Sequence record: MN850574.1
Direction: 5' to 3' (one strand)
Origin: Escherichia phage kaaroe
Length of the DNA stretch: 64,000 nucleotides
Each line of letters begins with the position of its first letter. Position 1 is the stretch's first letter. The notes below the pieces were generated by a model, which did no database searches, was not told the origin of the DNA, and was given only the letters and a program-made list of their open reading frames with translations. Positions 4,618 through 58,184 of the stretch are shown piece by piece. The position numbers and the translations under genes were made by a program.

Positions 4618-6726
4618 ATGAAAATGCATATTGATAATGAAGAAGTATTTGGCAGTGACTTGAGCGGTGCGGTTGATTTTTCACTGAAAGCAAGTAGCAA
4701 GGCTTTTATGGTGCTTTCTAAGAACACTTATCAATATTGTGAACGTGCTTGCGTCCGTGAGTATTCGTGCAATGCTACCGACACTCACAAAGAAGCCGGA
4801 ACCTTAGATCGTCCGTTTGATATTCATTTACCGACTGCAATCGAACCGTATTTTTCTGTGCGTGATTATGGTACTGGTATTCCGTCTAAGAAAGAATTAG
4901 AACAACTGTTTACGGTTTACTTTGAATCAACAAAAGACCAGACTAATGATTATATCGGATCTTTTGGTTTAGGTGCGAAATCTGCTTATAGCTATACCGA
5001 CACCTTTACAATCGTAAACTATTACAATGGTCGCGCTTATGGCTTTACGGCATTTGTGCAAAACTCTATGCCGAAAATGGTGCAGATTTTCGACGAACCG
5101 ACCTATGAAGACAACGGTCTGAAAATCACTATTCCGGTGAAAGAAAAAGACATTCAGACATGGCATCGAGAAGCGCAATTTGTACTGCGTCATTTTGGGG
5201 AACACAAACCTAATATCAATGCAATCGAAATTAATTATTTCCCTAGCTTTGATAATTATTATGTGTGTAATGGGCGTGATAACGATTCCTATGTAGTATA
5301 TGCAATCATGGGTAAGATCCAGTATCCGATCCCGTATGAATATGTTCGCGGAACATGGTTAGAAGCTGTAAACCGCCAGCACCAGACCATTTACATTAAT
5401 TTTGAGTTGGGTGATCTGGACCTTATGCCATCGCGTGAAGAAGTTCACTTGTCAATTGAGACTAAAGCGAACATCGAAAAACGCATTGCAGAAATCAATG
5501 AAATGATGTTGGAAAAGGTTAAAGAAAAGATCGCCAACATTAAAACAGAGCGTAAACTTGCGCAATTTATGAGCGAGTATTCATCGACTCAACGCAATAT
5601 TATTAGCAAGATGGGTAAGATCGGACAATGGGACGATCCGGTAGCAATCTATAATAAGTTTGTTAATGCGGGTAAAGATTCGCCTAATGACGTAGAAGGT
5701 CAGGTGTATACTCTGTATCGTACTCGTCACACAATAAGTAAATTGCGCCCTGCTTTCGTTAGCAGTCAATACAACATTACGCATTTTGTATGGATGCATA
5801 AAGAAGATATTACGTGTCTTATTGATGATACCGATAAACCGAAACTGCGTGCACTGACTCTTAACGGCATGGTCCAGGAATACGGCATCAATAAAAAGGT
5901 ACTGGTGTTCCGTCAGAAAAACGAAAAACATATGGAGACTTTCGAGTACATCAAACAGTATTATGATGATTCTGAAATGACCGTGATTAAAGTGTCTGAG
6001 GCCGATGATCTGCGTGCTAAAGCAGTTAAACCGGAGAAGACCGAGCGTACACAACGTGAAGCGACTCCTAAGCTGCCTAACGTGTATATCATGGAAAAGA
6101 TTGGTGACAGTTGGCATAAAACCAGCCATCACATGAAAGCGGCAGAGATTCGCGAGTTATCAGGCTTGCACATGTTCCGCGTAGGTGATGCATTCGAAAG
6201 CCGTAGTCGTAAATCGATCCATAGTGAAAATACATTACACACGGCGCTTGACTACTTCGGGGTAACAAAGTATATTATTACTCGAAACGAGACACAAAAA
6301 TATCTCGTTGACGAACAATTGGAATGTGCGCTAGAATTTGTTCGCGGTAAGCTGGCTGGTCTGGCTAAGAAGGTTAAGACCAATCATCTGGGGTATGGCG
6401 AATATCTGGGTGTGATCACTATGTTGTTTCATGACGATGAACTAGAACGCTGTGTTCCAGAATTTATTGACAGACTGTACGGTCGTCATTATAATAAAGA
6501 GGTTTCCAAGTTACTCCTTCGTACTCGTTGGATTATGGACGCAGAAACTAAAAAGATTTGTGATGAAAAATTCACGGTAGCAAACGAACGAATTAAAGCA
6601 GTTTGTGCGAAGTTTAAAGAGAATAGCCCGTTACTGTATGATATTGTAGATAACTGGTATCGTATTCTGCATAATGACAAACGCGCACAAGACTTTATGA
6701 AACTGGTTAAGAATGTTAAATTTTAA
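4618..6726 (+). CDS. rIIA: rIIA protein (membrane-associated, GHKL ATPase-like N-terminal domain)
   Basis: 702 aa; HATPase-like motifs (DYGTGIP, GSFGLGAKSAY); rIIA-rIIB-like pair following gene 39 as in T4. Confidence 0.85.
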   Translation: MKMHIDNEEVFGSDLSGAVDFSLKASSKAFMVLSKNTYQYCERACVREYSCNATDTHKEAGTLDRPFDIHLPTAIEPYFSVRDYGTGIPSKKELEQLFTVYFESTKDQTNDYIGSFGLGAKSAYSYTDTFTIVNYYNGRAYGFTAFVQNSMPKMVQIFDEPTYEDNGLKITIPVKEKDIQTWHREAQFVLRHFGEHKPNINAIEINYFPSFDNYYVCNGRDNDSYVVYAIMGKIQYPIPYEYVRGTWLEAVNRQHQTIYINFELGDLDLMPSREEVHLSIETKANIEKRIAEINEMMLEKVKEKIANIKTERKLAQFMSEYSSTQRNIISKMGKIGQWDDPVAIYNKFVNAGKDSPNDVEGQVYTLYRTRHTISKLRPAFVSSQYNITHFVWMHKEDITCLIDDTDKPKLRALTLNGMVQEYGINKKVLVFRQKNEKHMETFEYIKQYYDDSEMTVIKVSEADDLRAKAVKPEKTERTQREATPKLPNVYIMEKIGDSWHKTSHHMKAAEIRELSGLHMFRVGDAFESRSRKSIHSENTLHTALDYFGVTKYIITRNETQKYLVDEQLECALEFVRGKLAGLAKKVKTNHLGYGEYLGVITMLFHDDELERCVPEFIDRLYGRHYNKEVSKLLLRTRWIMDAETKKICDEKFTVANERIKAVCAKFKENSPLLYDIVDNWYRILHNDKRAQDFMKLVKNVKF

Positions 6727-6931: not shown

Positions 6932-7924
6932 ATGACTAAAGCAAAAATCACCGTCTCTGACCGTAACGTTCAATGCCTGGATTCTGAAAAACAAATCAAA
7001 CTGGCTAAACAGTGGGGCGAAGGTAAGTTTACTACCCGCGAAGCACTTGCGGCAGCATTTGGGGTATCTCGTCGTACTGCCTCCCGTGTATTACTGATTC
7101 AGAAAGACGCAGTAGCGGAAGGTCGCAAGGCACTAGAAAAACGTAAAGCACGCCGTAAAACCAGTAAAGGAAAAGGCGGTGAACGCGCAAAAAAGCCCGT
7201 GACTACTTCCTCAAAAATCGTAGCAATAGCCTCAACTAAGTTTATTACTATTACATGTGGTGACATTGTTTATACTGCTGATCCATCGCATGTTAACTTT
7301 AATGAAGCACTGGAAGCGATTAAACATAATGATTTCATCAAAGCTATTACGCTGATTGACATTAAGAAAGCGGTTGAAGTATATTATCACGGCGCTTTCC
7401 GTATCGAAAATGGTATTGTGTATTATCATAATATTGTTCTTGATAATAATCTGACTCGTCGAGTTGTGGAGTCGATTAAAGAGAATAAGCCATATACGCA
7501 CTATCTGAACTTCTTTGAGAAGTGCAAGAAGAATCCTAGCCGTAAGGCGGTAGATCGTCTGTTTGACTTCTTAGAGCACAACGACATTGAGATCGGGGAA
7601 GATGGTTGTTTCTATGCATGGAAACGTGTTGATGTTGATTATAAAGATTTCTTTACGCATACGTTTGATAATAGCCCAGGGCGCACGGTTAAAATGAAGC
7701 GTAAAGACGTGGACCCAGATGATGATCGCACTTGCTCTAATGGCCTCCACGTTGCAGCGAAACACTATATTCCTCACTATGGCGGTGGACGAGGCCGAAT
7801 CATTAAATGCAAAGTTGATCCGCGTCACGTTGTAAGTATCCCGAAAGATTATGCGAATGCCAAAATGCGCTGCCATCGTTACTATGTGGTTGAAGATGTA
7901 ACCGAAGGTTTTAGCCATTACTAA
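6932..7924 (+). CDS. rIIB: rIIB protein
   Basis: Internal ATG 11 nt after AGAGGA SD; ~330 aa; directly downstream of rIIA. Confidence 0.8.
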   Translation: MTKAKITVSDRNVQCLDSEKQIKLAKQWGEGKFTTREALAAAFGVSRRTASRVLLIQKDAVAEGRKALEKRKARRKTSKGKGGERAKKPVTTSSKIVAIASTKFITITCGDIVYTADPSHVNFNEALEAIKHNDFIKAITLIDIKKAVEVYYHGAFRIENGIVYYHNIVLDNNLTRRVVESIKENKPYTHYLNFFEKCKKNPSRKAVDRLFDFLEHNDIEIGEDGCFYAWKRVDVDYKDFFTHTFDNSPGRTVKMKRKDVDPDDDRTCSNGLHVAAKHYIPHYGGGRGRIIKCKVDPRHVVSIPKDYANAKMRCHRYYVVEDVTEGFSHY

Positions 7925-8606: not shown

Positions 8607-8969
8607 ATGCTAGGTCATTCTAAAATAGAAGATTGCTCATTCAGAGCAATGAAAGATGATTTTTCGGTCCTGTACGCGTCTATCCGAGAGTTGTTTGTAG
8701 ATTTTAAGCAATTCAGAGAATACAAAGGCGTTAAGATGCGGGAGTGGGTATTCTGGCCTTTCTATATCATTACTCTGTTTTCTATGGTATTTTGTTTTGT
8801 CGGGATCACTATCGCTAGTTTTGTCACTTGCGTTTTCCTGATTATCAGGTGTATCATGTTTGCTTTGATTGCTGCCCCGTTTATTGTGTCAATCCTTCCG
8901 TTAAAATGGCTATTGGATTGGGCTGATAAATCTGATAAAGTAAAGAATGTGATTTGTAAGCGTGTATGA
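8607..8969 (+). CDS. predicted integral membrane protein (120 aa)
   Basis: Long hydrophobic stretches (WVFWPFYIITLFSMVF..., FALIAAPFIVSILPL). Confidence 0.5.
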   Translation: MLGHSKIEDCSFRAMKDDFSVLYASIRELFVDFKQFREYKGVKMREWVFWPFYIITLFSMVFCFVGITIASFVTCVFLIIRCIMFALIAAPFIVSILPLKWLLDWADKSDKVKNVICKRV

Positions 8970-36375: not shown

Positions 36376-36404
36376 TTGACGCGGGGAGAAATCCCCGCTA
36401 TAAT
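36376..36404 (+). promoter_or_regulatory. PeSL-like early promoter cassette
   Basis: TTGACG, CGGGGA-GAAA-TCCCCG hairpin in spacer, TATAAT. Confidence 0.55.
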
Positions 36405-36603: not shown

Positions 36604-36777
36604 ATGGCTACTGTATGGTTATTGATTGCAATCAGCAATTCAATGTATAATTACGGAAATATGTCAAGCATTGAATTTGCAACAAAGCAGGATTGCGTTA
36701 AAGCTCGCGAGATTATCCGCGAAGACAATAAACGCTTTATGAATCTATATTGCGTTGAAAAACAAAAGGTGAACTAA
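36604..36777 (+). CDS. small protein (57 aa), tandem paralog A
   Basis: MATVWLLIAISNSMYNYGNMSSIEFATKQDC...; below ORF-track cutoff. Confidence 0.5.
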   Translation: MATVWLLIAISNSMYNYGNMSSIEFATKQDCVKAREIIREDNKRFMNLYCVEKQKVN

Positions 36778-36944
36778 TGGCTACATTATGGTTATTGCTT
36801 TCCGTTAGCGTAGGCTCATATAATAAAGGAACTGTTACCAGCGTGGAGTTTTCATCACATCAAAGCTGTTTTGAAGCCGTGCAGGAATTGCAACAGGATA
36901 ACGAAATAAACAGAAATACTAAGTTCTTTTGTGTTAAAAAGTGA
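36777..36944 (+). CDS. small protein (55 aa), tandem paralog B
   Basis: MATLWLLLSVSVGSYNKGTVTSVEFSSHQSC...; start overlaps paralog A stop (TAATG). Confidence 0.5.
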   Translation: MATLWLLLSVSVGSYNKGTVTSVEFSSHQSCFEAVQELQQDNEINRNTKFFCVKK

Positions 36945-47270: not shown

Positions 47271-47283
47271 TTCAAAAAGTTGT

Positions 47284-47312
47284 TGACAGGGGATCGGTGA
47301 TCCCCTATACTA
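47284..47312 (+). promoter_or_regulatory. PeSL-like early promoter cassette
   Basis: TTGACA, GGGGATCGGTGATCCCC hairpin in spacer, TATACT; conserved leader. Confidence 0.6.
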
Positions 47313-47356
47313 CACACATCAAAACGAAACACACTTTCTTAAACGGAGAATCAAAA

Positions 47357-47668
47357 ATGAAATACATCGTAACGCTGCCAATGATTGACTTCGACGGAAC
47401 CATGAACACCCAGAAGACCATGAGCGCGGAGAACCAACTGAAAAACGCTACCCTGATTCGTGAAGTTCGCAAGGCACTGGCAAAAGAATTTAACACCAAA
47501 ATTCATTCTGTAACTGGCGAACGTTTCGCGGATCATCTTGATATCAACATCAAACCAGTGCGCAACGGTGTTATCTCTGTAACAACCAGCCGCCCACATG
47601 CTGACGCTGATAATCTGACCGCTCGCGCAGAAGATGTAATTATGACCGTTATCATGGAAAAACTTTAA
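47357..47668 (+). CDS. hypothetical protein (103 aa); paralog of 50675-50962
   Basis: ATG after GGAGAATCAAAA; shared VRKALAKEFN motif. Confidence 0.5.
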   Translation: MKYIVTLPMIDFDGTMNTQKTMSAENQLKNATLIREVRKALAKEFNTKIHSVTGERFADHLDINIKPVRNGVISVTTSRPHADADNLTARAEDVIMTVIMEKL

Positions 47669-47676
47669 AAAAGTTG

Positions 47677-47705
47677 TTGACAGGGGATCACCGATCCCCT
47701 ATACT
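47677..47705 (+). promoter_or_regulatory. PeSL-like early promoter cassette (hairpin in flipped orientation)
   Basis: TTGACA, GGGGATCACCGATCCCC, TATACT; conserved leader. Confidence 0.6.
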
Positions 47706-47739
47706 ACACACATACCGAAACGAACTAGGAGAATCAATT

Positions 47740-47919
47740 ATGAACTTCAACGAAATCATCGCTAAAATCCGCTACAACGAAGAAACCATTGAACTGATGC
47801 AAAACAATATCACCAATGGCTATATGATTGCAGCGTCACAAGAAATCATTGATTTGACGGTAGCAGAAAATGCTCAGTTGAAACATCAACTTTCAACGGC
47901 TGGCGTGATTGTTATGTAA
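47740..47919 (+). CDS. hypothetical protein (59 aa)
   Basis: ATG after AGGAGAATCAA. Confidence 0.5.
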   Translation: MNFNEIIAKIRYNEETIELMQNNITNGYMIAASQEIIDLTVAENAQLKHQLSTAGVIVM

Positions 47920-47936: not shown

Positions 47937-48239
47937 ATGGCAAAAGTTCAGGTAGGTGAGGTCTTCAAAATGGAAGACCACACCGTGGAAGAGATGAAAG
48001 GCGCAGTATTGAAAGTAATTAATTCAATGTGGCGTAGTGTGCTTTACATCAACTTTATCGACGGTGATGTGTGGTGGGCTAGCGATAGCGATAAATGGGA
48101 TATCAAGTTCTACAAAGGTCATACTCACTGGTTAGGATCAGAGGATGTTGTAGAAGTTCTTGCGGTTGATGTTATGCCAGGAGAGATCGAGAATCTTAGC
48201 GGAACAGCAAAAGAAGCATTGACACGCCATTTTGCGTAA
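47937..48239 (+). CDS. hypothetical protein (100 aa), HxHW-family paralog
   Basis: ORF track; GHTHWLGSEDVVEVLAVDV. Confidence 0.5.
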   Translation: MAKVQVGEVFKMEDHTVEEMKGAVLKVINSMWRSVLYINFIDGDVWWASDSDKWDIKFYKGHTHWLGSEDVVEVLAVDVMPGEIENLSGTAKEALTRHFA

Positions 48240-48500: not shown

Positions 48501-48797
48501 ACTATGGAACATACTAATTTGTTTGTAGCCGAACCTTTCGTTGAAGGCAATAAAAATCTGGCTAATACCGTTATTCTTTATGAAGATTGGATCTTTTACA
48601 TCGACGAGCATTTAGATGTATTTTGTCGCACAGATAAAAGTGACCAATTTCCAATTGAAAAAAATCGAACATCAAATCATTGGTACGGCGGGAATGACGA
48701 AACCGACCTAGCTATTGTTCTAGAATCAGGCGTAGAATCTGAACATGCCAATGAAGTGGCAGACAAATTTATGAAATACGCATATAAAGCATTATAA
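48501..48797 (+). CDS. hypothetical acidic protein (98 aa)
   Basis: Internal ATG of track ORF after GAGGAAAA SD. Confidence 0.5.
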   Translation, partial: TMEHTNLFVAEPFVEGNKNLANTVILYEDWIFYIDEHLDVFCRTDKSDQFPIEKNRTSNHWYGGNDETDLAIVLESGVESEHANEVADKFMKYAYKAL

Positions 48798-48802
48798 AGT
48801 TG

Positions 48803-48831
48803 TTGACAGGGGATCGGTGATCCCCTATAAT
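48803..48831 (+). promoter_or_regulatory. PeSL-like early promoter cassette
   Basis: TTGACA, GGGGATCGGTGATCCCC, TATAAT; conserved leader. Confidence 0.6.
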
Positions 48832-48863
48832 GCACACATACCAACGAGATAGGAGAATCAAAA

Positions 48864-49031
48864 ATGTTCCAGACTAAAGCAGAATGCGAAGCATACATTG
48901 TAGCAAACCACGGTGAAGACTACCTGAAATTCGATATCGTAGTAGCACAGAAGATCACCGGAATGGTTGCAAAATATCTGGGTGTTAAAGAAGGTTACTA
49001 TCCGAGCAACGCACCGGAAATCAACAAATAA
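48864..49031 (+). CDS. hypothetical protein (55 aa); near-identical copy at 52144-52311
   Basis: MFQTKAECEAYIVANHGEDYLKFDIVVAQK...; below track cutoff. Confidence 0.5.
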   Translation: MFQTKAECEAYIVANHGEDYLKFDIVVAQKITGMVAKYLGVKEGYYPSNAPEINK

Positions 49032-49034
49032 TAG

Positions 49035-49068
49035 TTGACAATGATTAAAGGGAGTAGTAAGATACTCA
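49035..49068 (+). promoter_or_regulatory. PeSL-like early promoter cassette (degenerate palindrome)
   Basis: TTGACA ... GGGAGTAGTAAGATACTCACA; conserved leader. Confidence 0.5.
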
Positions 49069-49095
49069 CATCAAGACAACAAACGGAGAATCAAA

Positions 49096-49275
49096 ATGAA
49101 AGCTATCGAAGTTCAGAAGTACATGGAACTCATCATTGAAGGTAAAGCACATACAGTATTGACTACCCACGTAGGATATGATAAAAATGTGCATATGCTG
49201 GTAGACAATATCGGCTGGATGAAGTTTAACCCTAACGAGAACGTACAAGCTCAAGAAATGACCATCCCTTTCTAA
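49096..49275 (+). CDS. hypothetical protein (59 aa)
   Basis: MKAIEVQKYMELIIEGKAHTV...; GGAGAATCAAA SD; below track cutoff. Confidence 0.45.
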   Translation: MKAIEVQKYMELIIEGKAHTVLTTHVGYDKNVHMLVDNIGWMKFNPNENVQAQEMTIPF

Positions 49276-49287
49276 GAGGAATATATT

Positions 49288-49566
49288 ATGATGCGAATTA
49301 CTGCAACGCTGGATAAGACACACAAAGAAAGATTTTTCGGTATGATCTTAAAAACGCCGATTTTCGATAATTACCTTTATGTTGACTATGAAGGTCACAT
49401 TAGCTATAAATGTAAAAATGATATTCGTGATTCCTTTGGTGATAAATCACAAGCTGATATTCATGACCACTGGTGGAACCATGACGAACCTTTACGAGTT
49501 ATCGCAGTTGATGTAAAAACAACAAAAGAAGCTGATAAGGTAGTGAATGATTATGAGCAAATTTAA
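49288..49566 (+). CDS. hypothetical protein (92 aa), HxHW-family paralog
   Basis: ORF track; HDHWWNHDEPLRVIAVDV. Confidence 0.5.
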   Translation: MMRITATLDKTHKERFFGMILKTPIFDNYLYVDYEGHISYKCKNDIRDSFGDKSQADIHDHWWNHDEPLRVIAVDVKTTKEADKVVNDYEQI

Positions 49567-49810
49567 AGAATACAAAGCATATCAACAGATCCTGCGAGTA
49601 TACGCACCAGAGTTCGCCGAAAAGATGATGGAAGATGCATCAAAATGCCCGTCCTTTTCTGGAAACAAAAACCATTATTCTACTCGTATTGTATCATGGA
49701 AAGAAACATGTTACACTCAACAGTGGATAAACGTTTTCTCAAAAACAATTGGTTGGAATGGTGTTAATTATGGGTATTCAGAGTCAATTCAAAGATTATC
49801 GAGTGTATAA
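49553..49810 (+). CDS. hypothetical protein (~85 aa), tandem paralog 1
   Basis: ORF track; MSKFKEYKAYQQILRVYAPEFAEKMMEDASKCPSF. Confidence 0.45.
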   Translation: MSKFKEYKAYQQILRVYAPEFAEKMMEDASKCPSFSGNKNHYSTRIVSWKETCYTQQWINVFSKTIGWNGVNYGYSESIQRLSSV

Positions 49811-49988
49811 AGAAATCTGTGCTGTATTTGATGAGAAAACAGCAGATAAAATGATGAAAGAAGCGTCACAATGTTCATCTTTTGTTGATAACAAAGATTT
49901 AAGAGTAAATGAGATCGTGTGCTGGAGCGACACGAAACATGAAATTGTATGGCGTACCGTGTACTATAGCCGCGACCGAGGATTATAA
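49770..49988 (+). CDS. hypothetical protein (72 aa), tandem paralog 2
   Basis: Internal ATG of track ORF; MGIQSQFKDYRVYKEICAVFDEKTADKMMKEASQCSSF. Confidence 0.45.
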   Translation: MGIQSQFKDYRVYKEICAVFDEKTADKMMKEASQCSSFVDNKDLRVNEIVCWSDTKHEIVWRTVYYSRDRGL

Positions 49989-49989
49989 A

Positions 49990-50310
49990 ATGAAATTAAC
50001 TAAAAAGATTTTCCCAGAATTGCGTAACTGTCTGTTACTGGTTACTGAATATAAACCTTATACGATCTATTTGTACGTTGATGAAAATCTGAAAATCCGT
50101 TACTATGATTATACGTCTCCAGTGATGAAATCATTTGCTCACTCGATCGCAAATAACTGTATGAATCACAATCATTGGGTATCAGAAACGGATGACGATG
50201 CGTCAGAAGTTGTAGTGGTTGCATGGAATCTATCACCAGCGGAAGCAGATCAAGCACGCATTAAGCATTATGCGAAAAACAATTGGTTTGACCTTATAAA
50301 TGAGGACTAA
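49990..50310 (+). CDS. hypothetical protein (106 aa), HxHW-family paralog
   Basis: Internal ATG of track ORF; HNHWVSETDDDASEVVVVAWN. Confidence 0.5.
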   Translation: MKLTKKIFPELRNCLLLVTEYKPYTIYLYVDENLKIRYYDYTSPVMKSFAHSIANNCMNHNHWVSETDDDASEVVVVAWNLSPAEADQARIKHYAKNNWFDLINED

Positions 50311-50314
50311 TATT

Positions 50315-50593
50315 ATGTTCAAAGTAGGTGATAAGTTTATTCTTAGTCGTGATATTCTCCCTAATCTGAAAGGTTGTATCATCAATCCTAGTAAAAATTC
50401 ATGGTTTTATCTGTTTATCGATGATGATCTAAATGTACGCGCCGAATATAAAGAAGGTCTTCGTACTGGTCTTGGTTTCTTTCACGATCATGACCATAGC
50501 CATTGGCTAAACGGTGGATTCGAAGCAACGGTGATAGCGGTTGATGTGGATTACACAAACATCATAGAAAAATATCAAAAAATTATTTTATAA
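50315..50593 (+). CDS. hypothetical protein (92 aa), HxHW-family paralog
   Basis: ATG after GAGGACTAATATT; HDHDHSHWLNGGFEATVIAVDV. Confidence 0.5.
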   Translation: MFKVGDKFILSRDILPNLKGCIINPSKNSWFYLFIDDDLNVRAEYKEGLRTGLGFFHDHDHSHWLNGGFEATVIAVDVDYTNIIEKYQKIIL

Positions 50594-50599
50594 AAAGTG

Positions 50600-50634
50600 T
50601 TGACATAAGATCGGGTGTATAGCATAATACACCC
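50600..50634 (+). promoter_or_regulatory. PeSL-like early promoter cassette
   Basis: TTGACA; GGGTGTATAGCATAATACACCC palindrome with CATAAT; conserved leader. Confidence 0.6.
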
Positions 50635-50674
50635 ATCGAAACGAGATACACTTTCTAACTAGGAGAATCAAATT

Positions 50675-50962
50675 ATGGCATACATTACTATCACTCTGAA
50701 AGTTAACAAATTTGCTCACGCTGCACACGAAACCGATAATGCAATCCGTAACAACAAGTTCGCACGTCTGGTACGCGATGCAGTAGCTAAAGAGTTCAAC
50801 TTCAAATTTGCAGATGGTAAAGTTATCACTAAATGGACTCATGACGGCGAAACTAAAGTAGAACTTGCTGACAACTTCGCAAATCAGGAATATGCACACC
50901 GTCGCATTAATGAAATCATCAGCGATGAACTCTACTACGGTGTACAGGAAGGACTGTTTTAA
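50675..50962 (+). CDS. hypothetical protein (95 aa); paralog of 47357-47668
   Basis: ORF track; LVRDAVAKEFNFK. Confidence 0.5.
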   Translation: MAYITITLKVNKFAHAAHETDNAIRNNKFARLVRDAVAKEFNFKFADGKVITKWTHDGETKVELADNFANQEYAHRRINEIISDELYYGVQEGLF

Positions 50963-50966
50963 TATA

Positions 50967-50987
50967 CGGGGCGTTAAGCCCCCTTTT
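50967..50987 (+). terminator. intrinsic terminator
   Basis: GGGGC-GTTAA-GCCCC followed by CTTTTC. Confidence 0.5.
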
Positions 50988-51011
50988 CATCCAACTATTG
51001 AGGATAATACT

Positions 51012-51320
51012 ATGAAAGATAATATCTTTGAATTTACCCGCGAAAATCTCCCAATGTTCCGAAAGTCTCTGCTTAAACTAGAGAACAGCAATTACGATGT
51101 ATATTTTTACATCACCGAAGATCTAGAGATCCTTTACGCTGATTACCCAGGTCCGATCCGTACCTTCGAAGAAGCATCGCAGTATAAAAATGTTCACGGT
51201 CATGAGCACTGGTTACGAGAAAACCCAGGTCGCAAGAAAGCACGCGTTAAAGTGATTGCGATTGACGTAACACCAGCATACGCCGACCGGATTGCACTGA
51301 ATGATTATTTGTCTAAATGA
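51012..51320 (+). CDS. hypothetical protein (102 aa), HxHW-family paralog
   Basis: ATG after GAGGATAATACT; HGHEHWLRENPGRKKARVKVIAIDV. Confidence 0.5.
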   Translation: MKDNIFEFTRENLPMFRKSLLKLENSNYDVYFYITEDLEILYADYPGPIRTFEEASQYKNVHGHEHWLRENPGRKKARVKVIAIDVTPAYADRIALNDYLSK

Positions 51321-51327
51321 TTTTATT

Positions 51328-51353
51328 AGCCGACCTTAGCGTCGGCTTTTTTA
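51328..51353 (+). terminator. intrinsic terminator
   Basis: AGCCGAC / GTCGGCT stem followed by TTTTTTATT. Confidence 0.65.
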
Positions 51354-51376
51354 TTGCATAAAATTAAAAAAAAGAA

Positions 51377-51410
51377 TTGACACCAGATCACGCCTATAGC
51401 ATAATACACC
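51377..51410 (+). promoter_or_regulatory. PeSL-like early promoter cassette
   Basis: TTGACA ... CATAATACACCC; conserved leader. Confidence 0.55.
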
Positions 51411-51445
51411 CATCGAAACGAGATACCACTTAGGAGAATCAAACA

Positions 51446-51715
51446 ATGGCACTGACTAAAACCACTACCAACTTTGCAAAACGTCACGGCTTCGACATTG
51501 AAATCAATAGCTTTAACGATTACACTCTTCTGTGTGTATATGAAATCGAAAATGATTGCGAGTGGATGTTCAGCTATCGCGTAAACGAAGACGGATCTTT
51601 CACTTGGAACGGAAATATCTATCTTGCACAGGAAGTAAAAGAAGAACTTCCGGCGAATATCAAAGATGAGAAACATTTACGTCAAGTTTTAAAATTTATT
51701 TCTGAAAATATCTAA
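51446..51715 (+). CDS. hypothetical protein (89 aa)
   Basis: ORF track; GGAGAATCAAAC SD. Confidence 0.5.
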   Translation: MALTKTTTNFAKRHGFDIEINSFNDYTLLCVYEIENDCEWMFSYRVNEDGSFTWNGNIYLAQEVKEELPANIKDEKHLRQVLKFISENI

Positions 51716-51723
51716 AAAAGTTG

Positions 51724-51757
51724 TTGACACCAAAGTAAGAACATAGCATAATACACC
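51724..51757 (+). promoter_or_regulatory. PeSL-like early promoter cassette
   Basis: TTGACA ... CATAATACACCC; conserved leader. Confidence 0.55.
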
Positions 51758-51785
51758 CATACCGAAACGAACTGGAGAATCAAAA

Positions 51786-52067
51786 ATGAAATTCATCAAA
51801 GCAACCGAAATCCTGAAAAACAAAGAAGCATACATCGGAAACATCGTTGGTATGAACATTCGCGGCGCTGGTAGCCAGTGGACCAAACTGGTTGATGTTA
51901 AAGCTAAAGGCGATAAAATTGAGTTCACTGTAAAAATGCTTACTCATAACGCACATATGGGTATCAAGACAAAAACGATGGCAGCAGATAAAAGCATTAA
52001 CTATCAGGGTCTGGGTGATTGGCTGAACTGGTGCAAAATGCACAATATCGAAACTAATCACGAATAA
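51786..52067 (+). CDS. hypothetical protein (93 aa)
   Basis: ORF track; GGAGAATCAAAA SD. Confidence 0.5.
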   Translation: MKFIKATEILKNKEAYIGNIVGMNIRGAGSQWTKLVDVKAKGDKIEFTVKMLTHNAHMGIKTKTMAADKSINYQGLGDWLNWCKMHNIETNHE

Positions 52068-52081
52068 TTTTAAAAAAGTTG

Positions 52082-52110
52082 TTGACGGGGATCGGGAGAT
52101 CCCCTATAAT
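52082..52110 (+). promoter_or_regulatory. PeSL-like early promoter cassette
   Basis: TTGACG, GGGGATCGGGAGATCCCC, TATAAT; conserved leader. Confidence 0.6.
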
Positions 52111-52143
52111 ACACACATAACGAAACGAAATAGGAGAATCAAA

Positions 52144-52311
52144 ATGTTCGAGACTAAAGCAGCATGTGAAGCATATATCATTGAAACCCACGGCGAAGAT
52201 TATCTGAAATTTGACATTGTAGTAGCACAGAAGATTGTAGGGATGGTTGCAAAATATCTGGGTGTTAAAGAAGGTTACTATCCGAGCAACGCACCAGAAA
52301 TTAACAAATAA
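52144..52311 (+). CDS. hypothetical protein (55 aa); near-identical copy of 48864-49031
   Basis: MFETKAACEAYIIETHGEDYLKFDIVVAQK...; below track cutoff. Confidence 0.5.
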   Translation: MFETKAACEAYIIETHGEDYLKFDIVVAQKIVGMVAKYLGVKEGYYPSNAPEINK

Positions 52312-52325
52312 TTTTATAAAAAGTA

Positions 52326-52354
52326 TTGACAGGGGAGGATAACTCCCCTACAAT
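52326..52354 (+). promoter_or_regulatory. PeSL-like early promoter cassette
   Basis: TTGACA, GGGGAG-GATAA-CTCCCC, TACAAT; conserved leader. Confidence 0.6.
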
Positions 52355-52394
52355 ACAACCATCAAGACGAGATACCACTTAGGAGAATCAAACA

Positions 52395-52646
52395 ATGGCT
52401 AACATCGAAACCGCAAAGAAAATCGCTAAAGACCTGAACGTTAAAGGCTTCCGTAAACTGAAATTACAGCGTGTACGCTACACCATCGGCAAACAGTGCT
52501 CTTTCATGAGCGAAGAAGTTGCTAACAGCCTCATTGATAACCTGATTGCGGCTGGCTGGGAAGTTGCGGATCTGAAAACTTGCCGCGAACTGGCTAACAA
52601 AGGTCTTTTAGATTCTGTTACTATCAAACCAATGGGGGCAGCGTGA
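52395..52646 (+). CDS. hypothetical protein (83 aa); first gene of the coupled operon
   Basis: ORF track; GGAGAATCAAAC SD. Confidence 0.5.
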   Translation: MANIETAKKIAKDLNVKGFRKLKLQRVRYTIGKQCSFMSEEVANSLIDNLIAAGWEVADLKTCRELANKGLLDSVTIKPMGAA

Positions 52647-52888
52647 AAAGAAAATTAATTAAACGCAATAAGGAATTTCTTAATAACTGCATTAAGGCCG
52701 CTAATGGTTGGCCTTTGTGCCTCTTCCTTTATGATTGGTATTCTAAACAATCAGTTGAGGAAACACGACACTATAAGAAGATCAGAAAAGAATCATATAC
52801 AAAACAAGGCCGCATTAACGGACTTTACTTAATGTGGCACGGCAAAGAACCTTCTAAAATCTGCGTTGGATTAAAGGGGCGTATATGA
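52643..52888 (+). CDS. hypothetical basic protein (81 aa)
   Basis: ORF track; start overlaps previous stop. Confidence 0.5.
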   Translation: MKRKLIKRNKEFLNNCIKAANGWPLCLFLYDWYSKQSVEETRHYKKIRKESYTKQGRINGLYLMWHGKEPSKICVGLKGRI

Positions 52889-53601
52889 AACAAAAATTAA
52901 TATTCTGTAACTTTGACGGATCGGGGATAATGGGGCTAGAATGGGCTAAAGCAGGTCATAAGGTGATCTGCTTTAATGCTGACGATGGCGACCACGGCAC
53001 ATACAAAAAGTATAATACCAGATTTGAACACCCAAACATTACCTATGTAAACACATGGATTGATTTGAACTGGCTAGAAAGAGCAATGGACCTTGAATGG
53101 GGGAAACCGGATATTATCTTTGCATTCCCACCGTGCACCAATTTAGCTGTTAGTGGCGCTGCACACTTTGAACGAAAGAAACGAGAACAAGGACCATTGA
53201 TTCAAGTTCATGATGTAAGGGCAGCTAAAATAACCGCTTATTTGGGTGAATGGCTAGGAGTTCCCTACATGATAGAGAATCCTGTAAGCGTTATCTCTAG
53301 CATGTGGCGTAAGCCTGATTACATGTTCCACCCGTGGGAATATGGCGGTTATTTGCCGGAAGATGATAAACATCCTACTTTTCCTGAGTATATCGCCGCC
53401 CGTGATATGTACCCGAAAAAGACTTGCTTATGGACCGGACAAGGCTTTATAATGCCAGAAAAGAAACCGTTGCAGATTAATAAAGGGTACAGTAAACAGC
53501 ATTCTAAGCTAGGCGGGAAAGGAACGAAAACAAAGACTATCAGGTCACTTACCCCGCGAGGATTCGCAAAGGCAGTATTTGAAGCAAATAAGGATCTATG
53601 A
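52885..53601 (+). CDS. short DNA C5-cytosine methyltransferase-like protein (no obvious target-recognition domain)
   Basis: 238 aa; motif I-like FDGSGIMG, motif IV-like FPPCTNLAVSGA, motif VI-like IENPVSV. Confidence 0.55.
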   Translation: MKQKLIFCNFDGSGIMGLEWAKAGHKVICFNADDGDHGTYKKYNTRFEHPNITYVNTWIDLNWLERAMDLEWGKPDIIFAFPPCTNLAVSGAAHFERKKREQGPLIQVHDVRAAKITAYLGEWLGVPYMIENPVSVISSMWRKPDYMFHPWEYGGYLPEDDKHPTFPEYIAARDMYPKKTCLWTGQGFIMPEKKPLQINKGYSKQHSKLGGKGTKTKTIRSLTPRGFAKAVFEANKDL

Positions 53602-53936: not shown

Positions 53937-54112
53937 TAACACCACAACTACACGGTAAAGAGATTTGCGATCTTACTTGGGAAGAGTTGGTCATGTATCG
54001 CGACACCTACAAATGGTTTGAATCCATGAAAGAATTTGTAGCAGCAGTACGAGAAGAAATGAGCATTCGCCAGTATGCGGACGCATATATTGAAAAGGTA
54101 AGCACACTATGA
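53933..54112 (+). CDS. hypothetical protein (59 aa)
   Basis: MITPQLHGKEICDLTWEELVMYRDTYKWF...; overlaps neighbours on both sides; below track cutoff. Confidence 0.45.
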   Translation: MITPQLHGKEICDLTWEELVMYRDTYKWFESMKEFVAAVREEMSIRQYADAYIEKVSTL

Positions 54113-54627
54113 ACCGTTTAACGCCTAAACGCCGTTACTATACCAATACTAAAAACTTTGTCATCTCTGTTTATGAGGCGTGGTTAGAAGATGGCTTTAT
54201 CAACATGAACCCAGATTATCAGCGTCCTTTGGTATGGGACACCGAAAACAAACGTATGTTTATCGAAAACCTGATTAATGATTTTCCGGTTGGTGCTATC
54301 GCAATGGCTAAGATTGATGATGGCTCTCGCTATGAGATCGAAATCGTGGACGGTAAACAGCGTTTAAACGCAATATTCTCCTTCATGAAGGATGAGTTTA
54401 GCATTGCTGGTAATGATGATTCTATGTTGTATTACAGTGATTTTACGCCAGCAGAAAAGCGACGTTTCCGAAATCTCGGACTACCCGCGATCATGATGGA
54501 AGAGAGCACACGAGAAGACCGATTAGAGTATTTCTACAAAACAAACTTTTTCGGTGTGCCTCAATCGGAAGAACATCGCCAGCATGTGATTGCCCTATTG
54601 CAAGATGAGCAATTAAAAAATAACTAA
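54109..54627 (+). CDS. DUF262-like (ParB/Srx-fold, GmrSD/DndB N-terminal-type) domain protein
   Basis: 172 aa; PDYQRPLVWD...FPVGAIAMA...YEIEIVDGKQRLNAIFSF (DGQQR-type motif). Confidence 0.55.
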   Translation: MNRLTPKRRYYTNTKNFVISVYEAWLEDGFINMNPDYQRPLVWDTENKRMFIENLINDFPVGAIAMAKIDDGSRYEIEIVDGKQRLNAIFSFMKDEFSIAGNDDSMLYYSDFTPAEKRRFRNLGLPAIMMEESTREDRLEYFYKTNFFGVPQSEEHRQHVIALLQDEQLKNN

Positions 54628-54635
54628 AAAAGTTG

Positions 54636-54664
54636 TTGACAGGGGATCATCGATCCCCTATAAT
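54636..54664 (+). promoter_or_regulatory. PeSL-like early promoter cassette
   Basis: TTGACA, GGGGATCATCGATCCCC, TATAAT; conserved leader. Confidence 0.6.
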
Positions 54665-54698
54665 ACACACATACCGAAACGAACTAGGAGAATCAAAC

Positions 54699-54878
54699 AT
54701 GAAACACTTAACCATCGAATCGGCAATCATCGCAATCGCTAAAGTTCAAGCGGCTTATAATTGCACTGACATTGAAGCCATTTCAAAAATGCAAGCAGAA
54801 GCAGCAAAAGCGGGTGACGAGAAATCTTTAGATGTTCTCTGCGAAATCAAAGCAGAATTGATTTCAAAAATGTTCTAA
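54699..54878 (+). CDS. hypothetical protein (59 aa)
   Basis: Internal ATG of track ORF after AGGAGAATCAAAC. Confidence 0.5.
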   Translation: MKHLTIESAIIAIAKVQAAYNCTDIEAISKMQAEAAKAGDEKSLDVLCEIKAELISKMF

Positions 54879-55229: not shown

Positions 55230-57281
55230 ATGTTTAACTTAGAAATCGACGATCTAATGATTGAATCTTTCGAGAAATGGCTGTTGACGGAAGAGGAAGA
55301 AAACTTTGGCAGTATTGCTCCGGTACAGTGCTTAAAGCCTAAGCAGAATCCTAAACAGCTTTTTGCAGTACAGACACGCGATAAAGATGTGATTGTCCGT
55401 CTTTGTAACTTCACCAACAAAACACCTAAAATCATTCGTATGGGTGACAAGACCGCACATGTTGTACTGTGCGAAATGAACAAAAGCGGTCGTATTGTAC
55501 AGCTTAAAAATGGTCTAGGCGATAACCCGATTGCAGTTATGTCAAGTGCTTTTGATGTGGTTATGGAAACAGCCCGTAAAGCGCAATTAGACGCTGTTAT
55601 GTTCCGTTTTAACGTATCCCGCATGAAAGGTAAGACCGAACTGGTTAAGCGCGTTATAGAGCGTTTGGTGCGTCGTACACCGAAGTTTGAAGTATTCCAG
55701 CAGGAAGTAATGACCAGCAAAAAGATCGCTTTAGTTGTTGTCAAGCGTCGCGGGATGGCGATTGATAAGATTAAAGGTATTAAACTTGATGAATCCTTGT
55801 TCACTAAAGTAGAAAGTGATTTAGGTGATCGCTGGGTATCTAAGGCTACTGGTGAATCTCTGACTAAAGATGAGGCATATGCGGCTAGTCTTGTGTCAGA
55901 AGAAGAACGAAACGCGGAAGCAGAACAACGCGTAGCGGCTAAATCTCGTTTGACTAAAGAAGAAATGCTGAAAACTCAAGCGACATATAACAGCGACTAC
56001 GTGAATCATCCAGAAAAAATTAATCTTAAACCGGAAGAAGATATCACCGAAGCAGAACCTAAGAAACAGTTTAATACTCTGATTGACCGTCAAGCCTTAG
56101 AACGTTCAACCGCCCGTTCTCTGAATGACTGGACAAGTGATATTATCACTCGCTATGGTTTCATGCGTACTATTTTTGAAAGCGAAGCCGATGCAAAATA
56201 CGCAGTAAGCGAACTGGTAAAAGTTCAGGATCAATATGATCCATTGTCTGCGGAAGTTATCGCAGCCTCGGTCAAACGCTTAAAAGAAATCATGAGCGAG
56301 GAAGTATTCGAAAACAAGATCACCGCCCTGGCAATGGATCGAGTAGACCAGTCTATGCCAGCAGATGTAAAAGCTGAAATGCTGCGTAGTCATATCACCC
56401 AGATTAAAACAGATGCCCTACGTAATATTGCCTCCGGTATGTTTGAAGCAATTGCTAGCAACATGGGTGAAATGATGGCAGATATTGATCTTGATCTGCC
56501 GGGCGCGGAAGGTTTTGTGTTGAGCGAATATGCCGATGCAGCATACATCAATATGAACAACTTCCTAACCGACCGTAAGCTGGAAGAGTTTGAAGGCATC
56601 GCAGATCCAGAAGAATTGGTCAAGATGTGCGATGCACTGGATAATGCCTTCTCCAACTATGGCGTTAAACTTGATCCGGGTACTATTCTGTATCGTGGTA
56701 TGGACTTCCGGTCGCAAATGTGGGAAACTGCACGTAAGCAAAAAGCGTTTTACTTTAAAAACTATGTGAGCACTTCCCTTGCACCTAACATTTTTGGCGG
56801 CTGGAATGCAAACGTGGCTAGTGCCGTTGCTGGTGTTGATTCTATGGCTGGCTCTCGCGGTGAAGGTGGCGCTAATGTTGCTTTCTCCATTGCTGGCGCG
56901 GAAAACATCCCTGTATTGCCAGTAGGTAACAAAGCATTTGCTTACAAAGAATGCGAGATTTTACTTCCTCGCGGTGTTGTGTTATCCTTTGATACGGTAA
57001 CTCGTGCTACGGCATCGACGGATTCACAAGAAACTTATTACATCGAGGCACATATTATGAACAAAAATGAACTGGCAGCATTACAAGAATCTGGCGAGAT
57101 GATCGCGGACGGTGATGCATTCATCCGTGAAGGTGTTGTTAAACCGGCTTCTGACCTGTCTTTCTCCAGCTTCATTAGCGAAGCTAAAACCGAACGTAAG
57201 AAAGCAGATAAGGCAACTCTACGTCAGCTTATCGCTGATCTGGTATCTGTAGACGCAATGCCAGATAAATTTAAAATGTAA
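55230..57281 (+). CDS. alt: Alt-like ADP-ribosyltransferase (packaged RNA polymerase-modifying enzyme)
   Basis: 683 aa (T4 Alt is of similar length); C-terminal R-S-E triad (LYRG, YVSTSL, ECEILLPRG); between ligase and baseplate genes. Confidence 0.8.
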   Translation: MFNLEIDDLMIESFEKWLLTEEEENFGSIAPVQCLKPKQNPKQLFAVQTRDKDVIVRLCNFTNKTPKIIRMGDKTAHVVLCEMNKSGRIVQLKNGLGDNPIAVMSSAFDVVMETARKAQLDAVMFRFNVSRMKGKTELVKRVIERLVRRTPKFEVFQQEVMTSKKIALVVVKRRGMAIDKIKGIKLDESLFTKVESDLGDRWVSKATGESLTKDEAYAASLVSEEERNAEAEQRVAAKSRLTKEEMLKTQATYNSDYVNHPEKINLKPEEDITEAEPKKQFNTLIDRQALERSTARSLNDWTSDIITRYGFMRTIFESEADAKYAVSELVKVQDQYDPLSAEVIAASVKRLKEIMSEEVFENKITALAMDRVDQSMPADVKAEMLRSHITQIKTDALRNIASGMFEAIASNMGEMMADIDLDLPGAEGFVLSEYADAAYINMNNFLTDRKLEEFEGIADPEELVKMCDALDNAFSNYGVKLDPGTILYRGMDFRSQMWETARKQKAFYFKNYVSTSLAPNIFGGWNANVASAVAGVDSMAGSRGEGGANVAFSIAGAENIPVLPVGNKAFAYKECEILLPRGVVLSFDTVTRATASTDSQETYYIEAHIMNKNELAALQESGEMIADGDAFIREGVVKPASDLSFSSFISEAKTERKKADKATLRQLIADLVSVDAMPDKFKM

Positions 57282-57359: not shown

Positions 57360-58184
57360 ATGTTCAAGAAATTACAGGATTTTCGTCTTTCAGAAGAATC
57401 ACGCGAATCAATGATGGAACGTATGGATAATTACATCGAAACATATGACATTGAGGGGATTAATGGTTACATGATCACTGAGATGATCAGCGATCAGATT
57501 AACTTTGATGATTATGTGAAGGTTATCCGCTTCCTTGAGCGCGAGACACAAGATTATGGATTTGTAAAGAAAATCATTAATGTGATGTATGAAGTACACT
57601 CCGAAGACTTTGGAGATAATGTATTCAAACATTACAAACATAACAACATAACCCCAGCAGAATATAATGCAATCTGTGATTATGTGTCTGAACAATACGA
57701 ATGGGTAAATGGTGCTCTCTTAGGGGAAGAAGACATGACCGATGAGATATCAGAGATTGTTGATTTGATGGATTGTGTCATGGATAAAACCGAAAAGTTA
57801 AACGGTACTCTTTATCGAGGTCAACATCTTGACATTCAGACAATAGAGCGTATCATTGAAGATAAGGAGTTTACCTTTAAAAACTTTGTATCTACCAGCA
57901 TGACACCGATCATCTTTGGAGGATGGCTATCAAACAGCACTAGCCTTTATTGTGAGAATCGATATGAATCAATGACCGGAAAGATGCAACATTCTTGTAA
58001 TGTATCATGGGTAATTGACGTAAAAGATCATAAAGGTTTTGTTGTTGGGTCAATTGCATGGAACCCTTGCGAATGTGAAGTAATTTTACCGCGAGGGACT
58101 TGCGTCAAGGTAAACGACGTAGTAGAATCTTTCGGCGATGAGAATCGTAGACAATTTACAATTTTCGGTGAGGTGACTAAATGA
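57360..58184 (+). CDS. second ADP-ribosyltransferase (paralog of the Alt catalytic domain)
   Basis: 274 aa; LYRGQ, FKNFVSTSM, ECEVILPRG aligned with the Alt C-terminus. Confidence 0.7.
   Translation: MFKKLQDFRLSEESRESMMERMDNYIETYDIEGINGYMITEMISDQINFDDYVKVIRFLERETQDYGFVKKIINVMYEVHSEDFGDNVFKHYKHNNITPAEYNAICDYVSEQYEWVNGALLGEEDMTDEISEIVDLMDCVMDKTEKLNGTLYRGQHLDIQTIERIIEDKEFTFKNFVSTSMTPIIFGGWLSNSTSLYCENRYESMTGKMQHSCNVSWVIDVKDHKGFVVGSIAWNPCECEVILPRGTCVKVNDVVESFGDENRRQFTIFGEVTK

Follow-up and report, generated by a model that had tools for sequence, protein, structure and literature searches.

Ancient paralogs of a small Krischvirus gene and evidence that they still recombine

It is well known in general that dispersed paralogs can undergo ectopic gene conversion and unequal crossing-over, in which contiguous diagnostic sites switch to the state of the other paralog or a deletion of one repeat period leaves a hybrid repeat. 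We consider here a pair of 55-residue genes, copy A and copy B, in a 64,000-nucleotide stretch of DNA from Escherichia phage kaaroe (sequence record MN850574.1), the whole of which is referred to as the window. Each gene lies behind a promoter-early stem-loop (PeSL), a class of element defined by Arbiol, Comeau, Kutateladze, Adamia and Krisch (2010, Genome Biol Evol 2:140; PMC2839356), who demonstrated promoter and terminator activity and the formation of mini-circles during infection for PeSLs of phages RB49 and phi1 other than the present ones, and for a circle carrying open reading frames (ORFs) 191–194. This mini-circle, sequenced from RB49, thus included the ortholog of copy B; ORF192 served as the model cassette, and PeSL crossovers were mapped either between the −10 box and the ATG or to the hairpin loop. 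The same paper puts the homology needed for phage recombination at less than 50 bp, a figure it takes from Singer et al. (1982), and the paralogy of ORF191 and ORF205 is not mentioned in it.

The locus described here resembles the RB49 and phi1 cassettes in its architecture (an AT-rich tract, sigma70-type −35 and −10 boxes, a G/C hairpin in the spacer, a Shine-Dalgarno sequence (SD) and an ATG), in its genome region, which is the same, with ORF191 being the ortholog of copy B, and in its natural junctions, which fall in the reported zones (−10 to ATG; hairpin/−10 region). It differs in that both of the recombining PeSLs precede 168 nt of extra homology, and in that the exchanges include short-patch gene conversion within the coding sequence (CDS) besides the gain and loss of cassettes. 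Both general signatures of ectopic exchange, the switched diagnostic sites and the hybrid repeat, are found here, although at a very small scale (a 168-nt gene with tracts of 25–70 nt) and in a lytic phage. PeSL-mediated modular shuffling and ectopic conversion are already known; particular to this case are the two paralogs, the conversion patches that they carry and the natural deletions with their mapped junctions. We regard A and B as ancient paralogs that still recombine, by gene conversion and by unequal crossing-over in the PeSL and 5′ untranslated region (5′UTR), and we put the probability of this reading at about 0.85.

Age of the gene pair

The window region is that of a Krischvirus (RB49-like, T4-type coliphage), with 93.9–98% identity to the Krischvirus genomes listed and 58 matching records, the closest being FL37 at 98.0%. 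In RB49 the orthologs of the two genes, RB49p205 and RB49p191, both called hypothetical proteins, belong to the variable region that DNA ligase gp30 and alt enclose.

48864..49031, + strand: copy A, 55-aa ORF, ortholog of RB49p205; the derived paralog at the protein level (Q3, A14, N15, T32)
52144..52311, + strand: copy B, 55-aa ORF, ortholog of RB49p191; nearer to the outgroup proteins

The initial annotation of this DNA described a near-identical pair of genes, each behind its own PeSL and 3.3 kb apart, and to this extent it is borne out: both translations are as it gave them, each copy stands behind a full PeSL, and the two point the same way, with 3280 bp from one start to the other. No third copy of the gene was found within the window by tblastn. 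The annotation's description of the copies as different in a few residues only is right for the proteins, which share 49 of 55 residues (89%) including all of the C-terminal 23, and wrong for the DNA, where 146 of 168 nt (86.9%) are identical and the 22 differences are unevenly spread, 20 within the first 102 nt and two within the last 66 nt.

Synonymous (dS) and nonsynonymous (dN) divergence were calculated by the Nei-Gojobori method, and both copies were extracted from nine two-copy genomes (the window, RB49, phi1, JSE, GEC-3S, ECD7, FL37, SFHK24 and G2248). The values for the window's copy A against its copy B are:

Whole gene: dS 0.67, dN 0.055
Codons 1–34: dS 1.47, dN 0.091
Codons 35–55: dS 0.16, dN 0

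The overall dN/dS is ~0.08, and both copies are under purifying selection. Orthologs differ from one another at 0–6 nt (mean dS 0.07–0.09, maximum 0.17) whereas A and B differ at 20–28 nt, and 20 diagnostic sites between nt 7 and 99 distinguish A from B in the nine two-copy genomes, the exceptions being isolated single sites. Two copies are present in 51 of the 58 Krischvirus records and one copy in the other seven. Because the dS between A and B lies far above that between orthologs, the A/B split is older than the radiation of the known genus, with roughly ten times its synonymous divergence, and the duplication is ancient.

The initial annotation had taken the pair as evidence of a recent cassette-mediated duplication, with the few differences gathered since. 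The similarity of the proteins and of the last 66 nt invites such a view, as do the documented PeSL mini-circles that are able to reinsert, one of them with ORF191 (PMC2839356), but we give it scarcely any credence. The dS values, 0.67 overall and 1.47 in codons 1–34, stand against ~0.08 for orthologs, and both paralogs carry the same diagnostic differences in all of the recognised Krischvirus species examined, with two copies in most records; moreover, the resemblance at the 3′ end comes from a patch peculiar to certain strains and missing in RB49, phi1, GEC-3S, G2248 and SFHK24. Independent duplication in each genome is excluded by the shared diagnostic sites. The comparison thus gives nucleotide divergence of the kind that marks the copies as ancient, which the annotation had itself named as the finding that speaks against recency.

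Gene conversion between the copies

Comparison across strains identifies the near-identical 3′ third of the window copies as a short A-to-B gene-conversion patch, which gives this part of the window's copy B an A-type sequence.

52251..52284 (minimal; CDS nt 108–141), 52243–52311 (maximal), + strand: A-to-B conversion patch in copy B, five diagnostic sites in the A state, 34–70 nt

The majority B type at nt 108, 114, 117, 120 and 141 (108G, 114C, 117C, 120A, 141T) is found in RB49, phi1, GEC-3S, G2248, SFHK24 and FL04, which are spread across the trees built from the two flanks (the ligase gene, and the downstream segment from p190 to the methyltransferase gene). The corresponding bases in the A copies are A, T, G, T and G, with nt 117 and 141 variable among these copies. 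Copy B of the window (WIN_B, WIN denoting the window's alleles) departs from this majority at these five positions and no others; each of them has the A state, they are contiguous among the diagnostic sites, and site 99 and the sequence past the stop codon are B-type. By our own estimate the chance of five random substitutions all falling at diagnostic sites and reaching the A state is ~(26/168 × 1/3)^5 = 4e-7. The A/B differences of the window pair are clustered (binomial P = 0.002), and maximum chi-squared permutation gave P = 0.04 for WIN and P = 0.027 for FL37, with RB49, phi1 and G2248 not significant.

Patches of other extents are present elsewhere. A shorter one, at nt 114–141, is shared by copy B of FL37 and the single gene of Cognac, copy B of ECD7 has a partial patch, and in Brandy the direction is the opposite, copy A carrying six consecutive B states (6/6 sites) at nt 51–75. 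Over the 58 records the 3′ allele of copy B forms a graded series, from 0 to 6–7 mismatches against WIN_B.

The 3′ near-identity could alternatively reflect a functional constraint at the nucleotide level, exerted for example by an RNA element or some overlapping signal, given that RB49-type pairs are also less diverged at the 3′ end (dS 0.5–0.9) than at the 5′ end (~1.4) and that the C-terminal 23 residues of A and B do not differ. We consider this very improbable, since there are many evidently viable B alleles with five synonymous differences from A in the tract, the five-difference allele being the commonest, and since the five changes in WIN_B all reach the exact A state; the Brandy patch, in addition, runs the other way and lies elsewhere in the gene. 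Short conversion tracts passing between A and B remain the explanation that we prefer.

PeSL elements and natural deletions

Each copy is bounded by promoter-like elements on both sides, and the two cassettes enclose an interval of small ORFs.

48786..48863, + strand: PeSL-A, comprising AT-rich tract, −35, hairpin, −10, 5′UTR and SD
49035..49063, + strand: promoter-like element 3′ of copy A, TTGACA-N17-TAAGAT; right boundary of cassette A
49096..52067, + strand: A–B interval, ~12 small ORFs equivalent to RB49p204–p193; no function assigned
52068..52143, + strand: PeSL-B, comprising AT-rich tract, −35, hairpin, −10, 5′UTR and SD GGAG
52312..52394, + strand: PeSL downstream of copy B, with TTGACA at 52326, hairpin GGGGAG...CTCCCC (−19.4 kcal/mol) and TACAAT; right boundary of cassette B

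Both upstream elements have an AT-rich tract with the upstream stop codon at the 5′ end, and a Shine-Dalgarno sequence and start codon at the 3′ end. In PeSL-A the stop codon of the upstream ORF (48795–48797) lies inside the AT-rich tract, and is followed by the −35 box TTGACA (48803–48808), a 17-nt spacer occupied by the hairpin GGGGATC-GGT-GATCCCC (48809–48825; −13.5 kcal/mol, z −2.4), the −10 box TATAAT (48826–48831), the A-specific 5′UTR CCAACGAG and the SD GGAG (48852–48855). PeSL-B has TTGACG (52082–52087), N17 and TATAAT (52105–52110), with the hairpin GGGGATC-GGGA-GATCCCC (52087–52104; −14.3 kcal/mol, z −2.7) and the B-specific 5′UTR CGAAACGAA. No convincing hairpin was found in the element at 49035–49063 (−5.2 kcal/mol, z −0.9). 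Such elements are common in the window, where TTGACN18TATAAT with at most one mismatch occurs 29 times against 2.9 expected, a ten-fold excess, and the hairpin loop variants GGT, ACC, ACA and GGGA are shuffled among copies and strains.

The homology specific to A and B comprises only ~25 nt of 5′UTR and the CDS, and ends right after the stop codon. The PeSLs of A and B are generic, being no more alike than either is to the unrelated PeSLs at 47677 and 54636, and hence do not delimit the duplicated unit; we rejected them as its limits. The cassette context described in the initial annotation is nevertheless borne out, each copy being a PeSL-flanked unit.

PeSLs have also entered gene calls. The TTG-start ORFs called at 47674–47919 and 54633–54878 (+), and at 6965–7168 in another locus (L014), begin with 'MLTGDHRSPI..HTYRNELGES', which is a PeSL translated in frame, and this artefact appears to lengthen the annotated copy-A CDS of G2248 (by 36 nt) and the N-terminus of a database protein (P0004).

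Two phages, Cognac and FL04, confirm the view of the pair as a deletion substrate: both are natural variants that lack exactly the A–B interval and have a single gene encoding the B protein. In both, the genes upstream of it are the neighbours of copy A (the equivalents of RB49p206–p208, FL04 having one 519-bp ORF at the p206/p207 position) and the genes downstream (p190, p189.1 and the methyltransferase gene) are the neighbours of copy B. Inversion between the copies, which had also been proposed, is rejected: they are direct repeats, and reciprocal exchange between them yields a deletion or a duplication.

The two junctions are different. In Cognac the hairpin is A-type, the UTR has the A-specific motif CAACGAGAT and the sequence is B-type by CDS nt 7, placing the crossover within ~27 nt around the SD and ATG, whereas in FL04 the left end of the PeSL is A-type (TTGACAGGGGATC...) and the UTR is B-type, which places the crossover in the PeSL core. 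Both zones match the mini-circle junctions of Arbiol et al. (−10 to ATG; hairpin loop; PMC2839356). FL04 has the two-copy WIN and FL37 as its nearest relatives in both flanks, which are 99.2% and 99.0% identical to the window, and the ligase tree places Cognac among MIZ4, GEC-3S and phi1; these positions indicate two independent, derived deletions.

Could the single-copy state of Cognac and FL04 instead be ancestral, or an artefact of assembly? Extant genomes alone cannot prove polarity, and a repeat-bounded segment can vanish through assembly collapse, but we think either highly unlikely: the nearest relatives of FL04 on both sides, and those among which Cognac is nested in the ligase tree, have two copies, the PeSLs combine A and B sequence, their left parts agreeing with the A context at every base, and the two different junctions come from genomes of different laboratories. 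Collapse of a 235-bp repeat of 87% identity, moreover, would not cost a finished assembly 3 kb of unique sequence.

Other losses take other forms. Brandy and UPWr_E1 have lost cassette B alone, PeSL-B having recombined with the PeSL that follows the cassette; their flanking segments share an overlap of 90 nt. These B-only excision products confirm the presence of a PeSL at either side of cassette B. MIZ4 has lost B together with ~3 kb downstream. MIZ5 and JK32 stand outside the set of single-copy records compared base by base. A metagenomic Krischvirus contig (IMGVR_UViG_3300045988_033703, L007) has copy A, at 8613–8789, and is without the equivalent of window positions 50516–52483; this deletion ends inside the p190 homolog and so does not look PeSL-mediated.

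Several points weigh against a continuing interaction between A and B as we propose it. The base-by-base comparison comprises 15 loci, and deposited assemblies could hold errors. The maximum chi-squared result for the window pair alone is marginal (P = 0.04), so that the case for conversion leans mainly on the comparison across strains. No three-copy genome, the reciprocal product of the deletions, was found among the 58 records. Both deletion junctions lie in the generic PeSL/5′UTR, outside the paralog-specific CDS, and the deletions could be ordinary PeSL-by-PeSL events owing nothing to the duplicated gene. On the other side, ~ten PeSL/promoter elements offer ~45 possible pairs, one of which has been used for two independent large deletions, and this repeated use, together with the conversion patches in the CDS, speaks for the CDS homology favouring this pair; the patches also show that heteroduplexes inside the CDS do form. 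Extra CDS homology may therefore have favoured exchange at this pair of PeSLs.

In our reading, A and B (RB49 ORF205 and ORF191) are ancient paralogs of a small early gene, held in PeSL-flanked cassettes in the ligase-to-alt hyperplastic region. They form direct repeats of ~235 bp (generic PeSL, 5′UTR and CDS), and homologous recombination is very active in this phage, so that the copies continue to interact ectopically. By one route, short-patch gene conversion carries tracts of ~25–70 nt between the copies; by the other, unequal crossing-over resolved in the PeSL/5′UTR removes 3.3 kb and leaves one copy behind a hybrid PeSL, as in Cognac and FL04. PeSL-by-PeSL exchange also removes cassette B alone, as in Brandy and UPWr_E1. 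We infer that the phage's own machinery carries out these events as homologous recombination.

A doubtful extension of this scheme would give the arrangement a role of its own. The pair might bound, as direct repeats, an accessory module of 3.3 kb with ~12 ORFans, repeatedly dropped and possibly regained as a mini-circle with a hybrid copy, with conversion keeping an identical tract of at least 50 nt so that the module stays excisable; or the paralogs might be specialised to different host targets, A having four derived surface substitutions.

The protein family, its relatives and the surrounding region

Searches of Pfam, NCBIfam and PDB sequences with the 55-aa protein gave no matches. Both copies match PHROG 8009 over its full length (profile 1–55 of 55; E = 1.2e-38 and 6.8e-38), a family without functional annotation, so that membership is silent on mechanism. 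An AlphaFold2 model of low confidence (pLDDT, the predicted local distance difference test score, 66) has helices at residues 5–16 and 18–39 and a disordered tail, and its sole Foldseek match in BFVD is the GEC-3S ortholog. The sigma70-type early promoter, strong SD, dN/dS of ~0.08 and near-universal retention in Krischvirus point to an expressed early protein that may act on a host component.

The family is tiny and restricted to enterobacterial phages. When 1.8 billion representatives were searched exhaustively with an HMMER profile, only three true clusters emerged, of Krischvirus, Swiduovirus and Sashavirus types, all other matches being short and in long proteins; a search of IMG/VR found two loci only, and a word-indexed homolog search found five proteins, near-identical or chimeric. 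One database protein (P0005, an ENA metagenome protein of 73 aa) is identical to copy A in its first 22 residues, to which a histidine-kinase ATPase fragment (PF02518) is joined, and in view of this fusion is probably an assembly or read chimera. In the Swiduovirus and Sashavirus siphoviruses the gene leads a small operon divergent from the large terminase gene.

The outgroup homologs, P0003 (78% identical to A, on the contig L017) and swi2, have the B residues E3, E14 and T15, and P0003 also V32, which makes copy A the derived copy at the protein level. On L017 the gene comes right after a homolog of RB49 ORF194, which suggests a greater age for the neighbourhood of copy B. Over the unconverted first 102 nt, A and B differ from each other at 20 positions, from P0003 at 26–30 and from swi2 at 33–35; being each other's nearest known relatives here, the two copies were more probably produced by duplication within the lineage than by two separate acquisitions.

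The alternative of xenologs, acquired horizontally on two occasions, for example as PeSL mini-circles from different phages, gains something from the presence of the family in unrelated siphoviruses (Swiduovirus, Sashavirus) and an unclassified contig, which means that it moves horizontally, as well as from the linkage to an ORF194 homolog that copy B has in common with L017, and from residues 1–34, where B is 6 aa from P0003 and also 6 aa from A. We nevertheless judge it unlikely, given the nucleotide distances above and the common setting of the copies in one hyperplastic region, with the same orientation and the same PeSL/UTR architecture. Duplication within the lineage thus remains our preferred origin for the pair.

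The L017 locus (4723–5165 and 5158–6633) has an unusual setting. The homolog adjoins genes with PHP and 2-hydroxyacid dehydrogenase domains, in which a resemblance to the E. coli genes ycdX (truncated) and ghrA is visible by eye, and this suggests that L017 is either a chimeric contig or an element that has integrated. When the gene pair of L017 was searched against complete E. coli genomes, the ORF194-like part alone matched, in 49 chromosomes at ~72% identity, and the 55-aa gene was not detectable at the DNA level in those 49 genomes.

The A–B interval of the window lacks RB49 ORF192, as does that of phi1. Four of its ORFs (49288–49566, 49909–50310, 50300–50593 and 50892–51320, all +) form a diverged paralog family (26–31% identity, E 1e-4 to 4e-12) whose members have a C-terminal 'H.HW ... 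V.VIAVDV' motif in common by eye, and 47937–48239 looks related. A further two (49547–49810 and 49758–49988, +) are overlapping tandem paralogs with 40% identity over 63 aa (E 1e-14). The region thus holds several old duplications besides the 55-aa pair.

Similar features are seen elsewhere in the window. Tandem paralogs of 55–57 aa (36604–36777 and 36777–36944, +; 40% identity, E 2e-14) lie downstream of a PeSL at 36376, and an Alt-like ADP-ribosyltransferase (55230–57281, +) and the neighbouring ADP-ribosyltransferase gene (57360–58184, +) share a homologous stretch of 109 aa at 37% identity. The equivalent of RB49p211 (47297–47668, +), located after an HNH endonuclease gene with PeSLs at 47283 and 47677 on either side, is another presence/absence cassette, being present in the window, RB49, JSE, FL37, G2248 and Cognac and absent from phi1, GEC-3S, MIZ4 and FL04. 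Two genes downstream of the DNA methyltransferase gene (52885–53601), a 172-aa ORF (54109–54627, +) has the motif 'IVDGKQRLNAI', in which we presume a resemblance to a DUF262/ParB-like nuclease domain.

For a reading made from one sequence alone the pair holds a caution, in that old and partly homogenised paralogs mimicked a recent duplication through their high protein identity and a local identical tract. Cognac49 plates on K-12, C600, BL21 and F5 (PMC9569957) without the ~3.3 kb that comprises ~12 ORFs and copy A, so this segment is dispensable on those laboratory hosts, which is useful in engineering RB49-like therapeutic phages. For the T4-type phages, the pair provides a natural example of PeSL-mediated modular shuffling in which sequenced isolates preserve the substrate (the two homologous cassettes), the by-products (the conversion patches) and the end products (the two independent deletions, with mapped junctions).

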